From a virus (taxonomy: Duplodnaviria > Heunggongvirae > Uroviricota > Caudoviricetes), in the IMG/VR virus record IMGVR_UViG_2740892429_000003: a DNA stretch of 42,039 nucleotides; one strand, given 5' to 3'. Below, one piece after another: positions 36,240 to 38,544 of this stretch; the first letter of the stretch is position 1, and the number at the start of each line of letters is the position of its first letter. A program made the position numbers and the translations under genes. The notes below the pieces were generated by a model, which was not told where the DNA came from, made no database searches, and was given only the letters and a program-made list of their open reading frames with translations.

Positions 36240-36461
36240 ATGTCATTTAAATATCGGGACAGTCCGCTTTATTACCGGGCTGCGAGGGAGGCCTTGCGCC
36301 TTGAGCAGTCCGGCGAATATGACCGGGCAGCGAAGGTCTGGGCCAAGGCTAACCGCCAGTCACGTAACGAACTGAATCAGGACTGGAGCGAACGCCGGTC
36401 TGATTTTTGTCTGATGCAGAACATGCGCGAAAAGCGTAAGGCGGTGAGCGATGACTTGTGA
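36240..36461 (+). CDS. Small hypothetical protein
   Basis: 73 aa (MSFKYRDSPLYYRAAREALR...), AGGAG SD 8 nt upstream of ATG. Confidence 0.4.
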   Translation: MSFKYRDSPLYYRAAREALRLEQSGEYDRAAKVWAKANRQSRNELNQDWSERRSDFCLMQNMREKRKAVSDDL

Positions 36462-36933
36462 GCAGACCATTCTTGACATGTGCTGCGGCTCTCGTATGTT
36501 TTGGTTCGACAAGGAGGACAAGCGCGCCGTGTTCAGTGATATCCGCGCCGAGCAGCATGAGCTTTGCGACGGTCGCCAGTTGGTTATAAGTCCGGACCTT
36601 ATAGCTGATTTCCGCGCCCTTCCCTTTGCCGATAACACTTTCCCTGTCGTCGTTTTCGATCCGCCGCACCTCGAGCGCGTCGGCGATAACGCGTGGATGA
36701 GGAAAAAGTACGGGCGGCTCAACAAAGAAACATGGCGCGATGATCTTCGCGACGGCTTCGCCGAAGCATTCAGGGTATTGCGGACCCACGGTGTACTCAT
36801 ATTCAAATGGAACGAAACGCAGATCCCGGTAAGCAATATCTTGGCGCTGACCGACGAGAAGCCGGCCATATGGCAACGAACCGGAAAAGCCGACAAAACC
36901 CACTGGGTTATTTTCGTCAAAGGTGTGGAATGA
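36451..36933 (+). CDS. Small DNA amino-methyltransferase (probable N6-adenine)
   Basis: 160 aa; motif I-like LDMCCGS followed by motif IV-like DPPH. Confidence 0.55.
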   Translation: MTCEQTILDMCCGSRMFWFDKEDKRAVFSDIRAEQHELCDGRQLVISPDLIADFRALPFADNTFPVVVFDPPHLERVGDNAWMRKKYGRLNKETWRDDLRDGFAEAFRVLRTHGVLIFKWNETQIPVSNILALTDEKPAIWQRTGKADKTHWVIFVKGVE

Positions 36934-37226
36934 TGGCCTACGAACGTGAAAGCCTTATCGAAAAGCACCTCGTCGCCGAAGTGAAAAAGGCTGGCGGGGT
37001 CGCCTTTAAGTTCGTGTCACCCGGTCGCCGCTCGGTACCGGATCGCATTGTCCTGCTACCCGGCGGTCGCATCGTCTTTGTCGAATGCAAAGCGCCAGGC
37101 AAACCACCACGGCCTGACCAGTTACGCGAGCACGAACGGCTGCGTGCGCTGGGCTTTACCGTGGTGGTATTAGATAGCAAAAATCTGGAGGGGATATTGT
37201 GCGGGGAGCCTATTACAACGAAATAG
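36930..37226 (+). CDS. VRR-NUC domain nuclease
   Basis: 98 aa from tandem ATG; PD...E-x-K signature (VPDRIVLLPGGRIVFVECK). Confidence 0.7.
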   Translation: MMAYERESLIEKHLVAEVKKAGGVAFKFVSPGRRSVPDRIVLLPGGRIVFVECKAPGKPPRPDQLREHERLRALGFTVVVLDSKNLEGILCGEPITTK

Positions 37227-38227
37227 ACCCTAACGCAGCACAATGGCTGCGTAACCTTATTGCTGCAGGTCATATCGCCCCGGGTGAAGTTGATGAAAGG
37301 AGTATCGAAGATGTCGCACCAGACGACTTGCGCGGATTCACACAGTGCCATTTCTTCGCCGGGATCGGCGTCTGGTCTTATGCTCTGCGTCTGGCCGGAT
37401 GGCCGGATAACAAACCGGTCTGGACAGGAAGTTGCCCGTGCCAGCCTTTCAGCTCGGCTGGTAAAGGCGCTGGGTTTGATGACGAGCGGCACCTATGGCC
37501 AGCACTATTCCACCTCATCAGCGAGCGACGCCCTAAGCTGGTATTTGGCGAACAGGTTGCGGGAGTCAATGCCTGGTTCGATCTTGTACAAACTGACGTG
37601 GAAGCAGTGGACTACGCCTTTGGGCTTGTCCCGTTTCCGGCTGCGGGCGTCGGTGCCCCGCATATCCGAGATAGAGCGTATTGGGTGGCCGACGCCAGCG
37701 GCGAGCGATCACAGCGGTGGCGAAAGCGCCTCAATAGCATTGAGGAAGATGTCTGGAGATCGTCGACCGTCCGGCAACACGCTACACAGCTCCCTGCGGA
37801 ATTTTGCTCACCTGGCGGGGTGGTACACCCCAACCTGCAACACAAACCCACAGCCGGAGACAAAACGCGGTCTAGAAACCTTAGCGGGACTATCCAGATT
37901 AGCGGGATGGCCGACAGTGACGACGATCGACAACAACCAAGTTCGTGCCGAGGGCGCAGCGGCCAATCATACCGAACGGGGAACGACCCTCGGCGGCGCT
38001 GCGAGAATCTGCGGCCCAATACGATTAACGGCTGCTGGGATGGTGCTGACTGGCTCCTCTGCCGGGATGGTCGCTGGCGGCCAGTTGAATCCGGCACATG
38101 CCCGTTGGCTAATGGGATTACCTCCAGAGTGGGACGACTGCGCGCCTACGGCAACGCGATAGTCGCACCAGCTGCCGCAACATTCATCCGCTCGTTTATG
38201 GAATGCGCAGGATACGACCTTATTTAA
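37199..38227 (+). CDS. DNA cytosine-5 methyltransferase (possible frameshifts in target-recognition region)
   Basis: Motif [10 protein letters not shown], motif [18 protein letters not shown], motif [12 protein letters not shown], motif X-like YGNAIVAP in this frame; middle segment is Arg/Ser-rich while overlapping frame 37260..38162 looks more protein-like. Confidence 0.65.
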
Positions 38228-38544
38228 TGCCACTCACATCTGGCATGATACCGTCCAGAAGGTAATTGCTTATATACAACGGAGCCGCCCATGGCATAAG
38301 TATAAGCATGAAGTTTTGTCCAGAAGTCCCCATAAACTAGTATTGGGGCTAAAAATTTTGGATCGCTAACCATAGATGTAGCAGGAAGCTCGAAACCTTT
38401 AGAAAGAATGTTTACCAGTGAAGGGTAATTTTCAAAATCAGTGCTATTCCCGCCCACCTCTAAAGCATCCAGTTCAAAGTCGAGCACTCCACCATTTTTG
38501 TAATACTCCGGAACAGTTAACCCTGATGTTAACAAAGTAGCCAT
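38224..38544 (-). CDS. Antisense low-GC hypothetical protein (cargo gene inside early operon)
   Basis: 106 aa; perfect AGGAGG SD 6-7 nt upstream of ATG; low GC; opposite strand to all neighbours. Confidence 0.5.
   Translation of the reverse strand: MATLLTSGLTVPEYYKNGGVLDFELDALEVGGNSTDFENYPSLVNILSKGFELPATSMVSDPKFLAPILVYGDFWTKLHAYTYAMGGSVVYKQLPSGRYHARCEWH

Follow-up and report, generated by a model that had tools for sequence, protein, structure and literature searches.

In this study, we have analysed a cytosine methyltransferase locus in a tailed-virus record (Caudoviricetes; IMG/VR IMGVR_UViG_2740892429_000003, 42,039 nucleotides, the whole of which is called the window), and the results indicate that the locus very probably holds two overlapping genes, both of them under selection. 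The outer gene, alpha (37199..38227, + strand, frame 1), has a GTG start and encodes 342 amino acids (aa) which, by fold and motifs, are the large domain of a C5-cytosine methyltransferase. The inner gene, beta (37311..38162, + strand, frame 2), encodes 283 aa from a probable ATG start at 37311, lies in the +1 frame relative to alpha and is wholly nested within it, with a same-strand overlap of 852 nucleotides (nt). A preliminary description of this DNA had read the locus as one enzyme split over two frames; the division of C5-methyltransferase elements between the frames stands, but the frame changes that it supposed do not, two polypeptides being favoured. The open reading frames (ORFs) on which it was based, 37199..38227 and the 300 stop-free codons of 37260..38162 (+ strand, +1 frame), are present, and the motifs quoted from both frames are all in place.

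Selection acts on both reading frames

When the frame-2 codons of the middle region were shuffled synonymously at 33 non-redundant loci, 2.45 frame-1 stops were expected per locus and none was observed, giving a summed log10 P of -46.5, which is an upper bound on significance since the loci are not fully independent. The third frame, used as a control under the same shuffle, had 6.3 stops observed against 6.0 expected. In the N-terminal half, shuffling of the frame-1 codons predicts 1.9 frame-2 stops, whereas none is found after alpha codon about 36 (summed log10 P = -41.6), and here too the third frame has stops at the expected rate.

The course of selection along the gene was followed by codon-position nucleotide diversity (pi) over 32 diverse loci, in alpha numbering, and by substitution counts within a close clade (the window against loci L005, L007, L009 and L010; figures are synonymous/nonsynonymous changes). 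Over alpha aa 1-80, diversity shows frame-1 selection only, with pi3 of about 0.5, and the close clade has 29/2 changes in frame 1 and 2/29 in frame 2. A first zone of dual constraint follows at alpha aa 81-168, corresponding to beta aa about 44-131 (37439..37702, + strand), where frame-1 synonymous-site diversity is 0.21-0.36 in most blocks, against 0.44-0.61 upstream, and the close clade has just 16 changes, divided between the frames. In this zone alpha motifs IV-VIII overlie the beta segment ASLSARQAK..LTSGTYG and the LYKLTWK..RFRLRAS module. The pattern is then reversed in the middle zone (alpha aa 169-275; 37703..38023, + strand), with 4/85 changes in frame 1 and 70/19 in frame 2; alpha is here a low-complexity spacer and beta carries its GW(P/Y)T(P/V) repeats, in whose GWPTP motifs the varying site is frame-2 position 3.

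The second zone of dual constraint (38024..38134, + strand) has 4/25 changes in frame 1 and 17/12 in frame 2 over alpha aa 276-312. Frame-1 third positions vary most at aa 283-292, and at aa 293-302 all codon positions are nearly frozen (pi 0.16/0.02/0.06). At the DNA level, Burkholderia phages are 85-87% identical to window positions 38022-38160 (139 nt; for instance, 2501-2639 of locus L002), far above the remainder of the gene, and this stretch coincides with the zone constrained in both frames. Selection finally returns to frame 1, as seen in the diversity of aa 313-332 and in the close-clade counts for aa 313-342 (20/1 in frame 1, 1/20 in frame 2). The order of selection along the gene is thus frame 1, both, frame 2, both, frame 1, and the substitution patterns imply that the functional information passes from frame 1 to frame 2 and back to frame 1. 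The hand-over points proposed earlier, at about 37685 and 38130, agree with the switches in selection at about 37700 and 38135.

Conservation of the two-frame layout

Two collections of loci, retrieved from opposite sides, show the same layout. The 80 viral loci found via frame 2 all have 303-476 open codons in frame 1, and frame 2 is intact in 78 of them; the other two have one nonsense codon each in a beta linker, with alpha intact. These stops, at about 3050 in viral contig L017 and about 3100 in L075, fall in a variable linker and could reflect beta loss, read-through or assembly error. The other set, collected from genomes with frame-1 patterns alone, comprises 80 loci from 80 species. 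Its +1 frame runs without a stop for at least 216 codons in 80/80 (median 312 codons; third frame, 61), and the C-terminal motif QLNPxHSRWLMG, taken as a strict pattern, is found in 75.

Both long ORFs occur in equal relative phase in Erwinia phage vB_EhrS_59, a Klebsiella element and Burkholderia phage phiBtTUL1a, and the layout is also present in phages N15, K1ind2, BcepC6B, Rhodobacter RcIroh, Vibrio Vaitephage, Erythrobacter R6L and Acidobacteria phage Tunturi_1. An exhaustive profile search for the beta family gave 18,884 clusters at 50% identity, 7,941 of them with E below 1e-30; in the databases, relatives number more than 4,666 for frame 2, among 8,000 candidates scored, and at least 8,000 for frame 1. 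The earlier impression that the second frame is protein-like is thereby well borne out. As to whether homologues align colinearly with the 342-aa frame, they do so in length but not in sequence, the middle being conserved in frame 2.

Annotations of these loci vary. The phage K1ind2 record has both ORFs, and Burkholderia phage records differ in which frame is annotated. In Tunturiibacter phage Tunturi_1 (L088 1023..2117) and Erythrobacter phage R6L (L089 846..2096), the coding sequence annotated as 'DNA methyltransferase' is the beta ORF or a piece of it, and the catalytic frame-1 ORF (364 and 416 codons, respectively) is unannotated. In a subfamily that includes L013, L017 and L092-L095 the C-terminal arrangement differs: the end of beta reads ...WDESSPGWQEWQAAT... 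and in alpha motif X is preceded by an insertion, GRVEPGVARVASSNRVGRLKGYGNAI, which implies that the place of the second hand-over between the frames varies within the family.

Beta has its own start signals

Alpha residues Glu-Arg-Ser-Ile-Glu-Asp-Val are written GAA (A/C)GG AG(T/C) ATT GAA GAT GTN, which provides frame 2 with a GGAG, an 8-nt spacer and an ATG. Rare Arg codons of alpha contribute to the GGAG, which 25 of the 32 non-redundant loci have, and the Asp codon that creates the ATG is GAT in 30 of the 32. The putative ribosome-binding site of beta in the window is AAGGAG (37297..37302, + strand), within the alpha codons Glu-Arg(AGG)-Ser(AGT) and 8 nt ahead of the ATG at 37311. P0001, a database protein of 283 aa that is 99% identical to beta, begins at this ATG, as do, at the corresponding profile position, most of the best 150 library representatives of beta. 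The N-terminal leader of beta, aa 1-41 (37311..37433, + strand), has no frame-2 constraint at the protein level according to the substitution patterns, and it is missing in N15.

Clades without that ATG have a nearby ATG instead, as in the Klebsiella element, or a later start, as in N15. In the case of N15 gene 58 (L086 629..1624), the nested frame opens only at about alpha codon 64, and beta must therefore begin near MTNDTSG, which is the position of the annotated start in phage phiBtTUL1a; the start site of beta thus differs among clades.

Signs of programmed frameshifting were also sought. No conserved -1 slippery heptamer lies near the second junction, X_XXY_YYZ being present in 3 of 37 loci, and the expected pair of a slippery site and a zero frame closed downstream was not found, both frames being open far past the junctions.

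Alpha carries the methyltransferase large domain

The motifs of C5-methyltransferases (I, FxGxG; IV, PCQ; VI, ENV; VIII, QxRxR; X, GNxxxP) can be followed along alpha, all on the + strand: motif I, FFAGIGVWS, at 37352..37378; motif IV, with the catalytic Cys, at 37433..37465; motif VI, FGEQV, at 37544..37558; motif VIII, with RDRAYWVA in the segment, at 37658..37690; and motif X, under selection in frame 1 only, at 38126..38188. FFAGIG, CPCQPF, GEQV, HIRDR and GNAIVAP are invariant or nearly so in alignment A3, with motif IV invariant; in motif VI, Q stands where the ENV consensus has N. Pfam PF00145 matches alpha with 47.8 bits (cutoff 22), the aligned part being aa 76-171 only. Alpha is a full-length match to phrog_363 and beta belongs to phrog_1008 and phrog_31772, all of which are labelled 'DNA methyltransferase' in PHROGs.

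Alpha is organised as large-domain motifs I-VIII, an unconserved spacer and a C-terminal segment that is conserved and includes motif X. Between motifs VIII and X, neither a target-recognition domain (TRD) nor motif IX was found in alpha's own chain, frame 1 being without motif IX. An AlphaFold2 model of alpha, built with 90 homologues, has a Rossmann-type core of moderate confidence and a confident C-terminal motif X helix (aa 323-337), with a predicted local distance difference test score (pLDDT) of about 80. Foldseek searches of the Protein Data Bank (PDB) with this model, whose quality is modest, retrieved M.HhaI (E 1.3e-6), M.HaeIII and DNMT2 over about 155-170 columns. At aa 182-320 the model is disordered (pLDDT <50, block means 26-41), and the composition of the frame-1 middle is rich in Arg, Ser and Gly, which agrees with the earlier remark that this region is unlike a folded TRD.

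Features and identity of beta

Beta consists of the 41-aa leader, a conserved helix-plus-hairpin module, GWPTP-type repeats and a C-terminal PxRLTxxG...QLNPxHSRWLMGLPxEW segment. In the window the repeats are GWPTP (37683..37697), GWYTP (37818..37832) and GWPTV (37905..37919), and a motif-IX-like segment at 38082..38132 is nearly invariant in alignment A2 (all + strand). The GW(P/Y)T(P/V) modules are conserved in alignments A1 and A2, with variable linkers, and their number ranges from 2 to 6 per beta across the family.

The C-terminal segment of beta resembles, on visual comparison, the TL element of a TRD followed by motif IX. When the beta profile was aligned by hhalign to M.HhaI and M.HaeIII, the motif-IX-like segment fell, without statistical significance, in register with M.HhaI RKLHPRECARVMGYP, and the register covers the TL motif as well as motif IX. 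The only part of beta modelled with confidence on its own is a helix plus beta-hairpin at aa 70-120 (LYKLTWK...RFRLRAS; pLDDT 73-85).

A proposed heterodimeric enzyme and its alternatives

We think it reasonably probable that alpha and beta together form a heterodimeric C5-methyltransferase, beta giving the small DNA-recognition domain that alpha does not have. Alpha would be the catalytic large domain (motifs I-VIII together with X), its two parts joined by a disordered spacer required only to stay open; beta would initiate within alpha, with a ribosome-binding site and ATG of its own, and supply recognition-type repeats and probably motif IX; and the two chains would associate into the active methyltransferase. 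As the variable region of alpha is a pure spacer, the recognition elements would most likely be on beta. Judged from the sequences, beta would be translated, bind alpha and take on the recognition and motif IX roles, and the pair might serve as an orphan anti-restriction methylase of phage or host DNA. It is tempting to go further and to regard beta as an interchangeable specificity subunit, in which every LAGWPTPxxxD module, together with the variable linker attached to it, would form a separate target-recognition unit and the presence of 2-6 modules would make the enzyme multispecific, but we consider this rather unlikely.

Several results weigh against the heterodimer, in particular against the assignment of motif IX to beta. 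Searches of beta against Pfam, NCBIfam and PDB sequences gave no methyltransferase match, those of Pfam and PDB yielding no hit, and no Pfam domain is recorded for typical frame-2 proteins among those listed. The hhalign comparison with M.HhaI and M.HaeIII is not significant (probability 0.2%, E 0.37). Pfam was searched with an artificial frame1-frame2-frame1 hybrid, with the C-terminal part of this hybrid and, as a control, with a C-terminus from frame 1 only, and the PF00145 match was not extended; likewise, a profile of 25 hybrid C-termini matched no methyltransferases among PDB sequences, with no extension to motifs IX and X. The idea that the hybrid would read as a canonical enzyme found no support in these profile searches. 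AlphaFold on beta alone gives a mean pLDDT of 57, a low confidence that would fit a protein ordered only on its partner or on DNA, and the overlapping C-terminal segments of both chains, the conserved one of alpha included, are modelled at low confidence. Finally, in M.EcoHK31I, the experimentally studied enzyme of this architecture, the literature assigns the TRD to alpha, whereas the variable region of alpha is unconstrained here.

A clearly less probable alternative is that alpha alone is a complete methyltransferase with a minimal TRD and that beta is a real overlapping gene with another role, for instance in regulation through DNA binding, in modulating specificity or in anti-defence. In its favour, the Pfam, PDB, hhalign and hybrid searches showed beta to be without significant similarity to C5-methyltransferases in any region, the C-terminal segment of alpha at aa 283-292 is under its own selection and might be a small recognition element, and two viral loci have a nonsense codon in beta with alpha intact. 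However, alpha has no conserved region from motif VIII to aa 276 and no motif IX, beta accompanies alpha in 80/80 loci, the non-significant hhalign alignment places the C-terminus of beta in register with two M.HhaI elements, the TL motif and motif IX, and both chains are needed in M.EcoHK31I. We therefore retain the heterodimer as the preferred reading.

A single polypeptide made through two programmed frameshifts, +1 near 37690 and -1 near 38135, would run through motifs I-VIII, the TRD, IX and X. Such a product would be expected to leave the observed succession of selection, frame 1, then frame 2, then frame 1 again, and the motif order of the hybrid is canonical. Even so, this is highly improbable, because frame 1 is held open over 107 unconserved codons of the middle, because frame 2 is open, and partly conserved, for about 370 nt upstream of the supposed shift near 37685, with its own ribosome-binding site and ATG, and because a conserved slippery heptamer is absent; nor does the hybrid score better with PF00145. 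Two genes rather than FRAMESHIFTING appear to be the best explanation of the sequence data, given the separate start of beta, the two frames kept open and the lack of a slippery site.

The remaining proposals, both raised in the preliminary description, can be set aside. Two compensating indels, through sequencing error or pseudogenisation of a former single-frame gene, might be suggested by rare database proteins that fuse the frames (P0014, P0015, P0017 and P0018), but indel error is excluded because the identical layout is conserved in hundreds of divergent loci, across phyla and with purifying selection in both frames; moreover, a complete E. coli chromosome matches the window at 100% identity and several others do so at 99.5%, and the fusions join at different points, which suggests sporadic indels. 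Equally negligible is the proposal that frame 2 is open by chance because the DNA is GC-rich. Although the gene has 58.3% G+C (0.60-0.62 in the dual-coding part) against 49.7% for the window, this is ruled out by the synonymous-shuffle tests and the frame-specific substitution patterns (70 synonymous and 19 nonsynonymous frame-2 changes in the middle zone), by a third frame with stops at the expected rate and a longest ORF of median 61 against 312 codons, and by a family of 18,884 clusters.

The fused proteins illustrate how gene callers handle a two-frame locus. They are two-frame chimeras joined at four different positions, P0014 passing from frame 2 to frame 1 and P0015, P0017 and P0018 in the opposite direction. 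Indel errors or mutations of single assemblies are their probable origin.

Genomic context

The window is a chromosomal E. coli prophage, and the fully identical chromosome is that of strain 21KM1392, in which PGAP annotates only frame 1, as a DNA cytosine methyltransferase, leaving beta unannotated. In this strain alpha lies between a VRR-NUC gene on one side and a DEAD/DEAH helicase gene on the other; no restriction enzyme gene is adjacent, and alpha is thus a prophage orphan methyltransferase. Its putative ribosome-binding site, GGAGG (37187..37191, + strand), stands 7 nt 5' of the GTG start.

Directly upstream of alpha are the gene of a class I S-adenosylmethionine-dependent methyltransferase (36451..36933) and then the VRR-NUC nuclease gene, whose 3' end contains the alpha GTG in a 28-nt overlap; one operon-like block of the prophage module therefore has two different methyltransferases, that of 36451..36933 and alpha. 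Between the methyltransferase and helicase genes there is a hypothetical ORF of 106 aa on the opposite strand (38224..38544, - strand), with a 4-nt overlap between its end and the alpha stop codon. The ORF is AT-rich (G+C about 0.41-0.43; neighbouring genes, 0.53-0.62) and has the look of a moron-type insertion.

Implications

PGAP, in the matching E. coli genome, and most phage records give one ORF for such loci, sometimes the 'wrong' one, and as a result thousands of beta proteins are missing or called hypothetical. In practical terms, codon-optimised or recoded copies of these cytosine methyltransferase genes would destroy beta and probably give an inactive enzyme. The 852-nt overlap, with its zone-by-zone selection in both frames, offers a benchmark for detecting genes that overlap, and the locus is useful for studying the transfer of a domain insertion onto a separate chain. 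The architecture characterises a very large family in phages and prophages, of which M.EcoHK31I may prove to be the type and not an oddity. If the modular reading of beta were true, phages would vary specificity by in-frame gain or loss of modules while the catalytic chain is left untouched, the commonest C5-methyltransferase of prophages would have its recognition half in this family of roughly 19,000 clusters, and the pair would be among the longest and most widespread same-strand overlapping genes of bacteria and phages.

Comparison with known systems

In monomeric C5-methyltransferases the large domain comprises motifs I-VIII plus motif X, and the small domain the TRD and motif IX (PMC3404938). 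Alpha shares with M.HhaI and M.HaeIII (PF00145) the large-domain fold and motifs I, IV, VI, VIII and X, and their large/small domain logic corresponds to the division between alpha and beta; unlike alpha, which has a disordered spacer instead, these enzymes carry the small domain in the single chain. According to the account in PMC3404938, the natural exceptions to the monomeric form are M.AquI and M.EcoHK31I. M.AquI is described as a split C5-methyltransferase encoded by consecutive genes, with motifs I-VIII on its alpha and IX-X on its beta (Karreman and de Waard 1990; Pinarbasi et al. 2002; PMC3404938). Like the present pair, it is a natural split enzyme, whose chains must associate, but its split lies within the variable region, whereas here motif X is on alpha and beta is fully nested.

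Looking at the relation of the present genes alone, a +1-frame nested gene is also found in the lambda Rz/Rz1 spanin pair, the products of which form one complex; these are unrelated lysis proteins, and their overlap is much shorter. Bacillus phages have multispecific orphan C5-methyltransferases, such as M.SPRI and M.Phi3TI, with several tandem recognition modules in single polypeptides. They offer a possible analogy to the 2-6 GWPTP modules of beta, the likeness being one of module organisation only. Literature searches on the motifs and on phage cytosine methyltransferases with overlapping or shifted frames returned nothing specific, and a study of out-of-frame remodelling in the E. coli pangenome (PMC8788219) leaves methyltransferases unmentioned.

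The closest parallel is M.EcoHK31I and, to our knowledge, the nested arrangement of a cytosine methyltransferase has been proven experimentally only for that enzyme. In the accounts given in PMC3404938 (citing Lee, Kam and Shaw 1995) and PMC2836561, it is a two-polypeptide C5-methyltransferase of E. coli HK31 acting on YGGCCR, whose beta chain is read from a different frame within the alpha gene and is needed for activity; its alpha has motifs I-VIII and X with a predicted TRD, and its beta has motif IX. Silent loss of the beta start codons abolishes activity, which is restored by beta in trans (PMC2836561). N-terminal deletions of this beta under about 37 residues are tolerated, in vivo protection falls from the 37-residue deletion on, and larger deletions progressively reduce activity, which the authors explain by weaker association (PMC2836561).

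Compared by description, the present locus is alike in the second ORF nested in the methyltransferase gene, in an alpha with motifs I-VIII and X but without IX, in a beta with a translation start of its own, and in the leader of beta, partly dispensable in M.EcoHK31I and without frame-2 constraint at aa 1-41 here. It differs in that beta is longer (283 aa), with an N-terminal module over alpha motifs IV-VIII and with GWPTP modules, in that the variable region of alpha is an unconstrained spacer and not a predicted TRD, and in that the gene is an orphan in a prophage with no adjacent restriction enzyme. On the grounds of architecture and of the apparent division of motifs between the chains, the locus would nonetheless belong to the M.EcoHK31I kind of nested two-polypeptide C5-methyltransferase.

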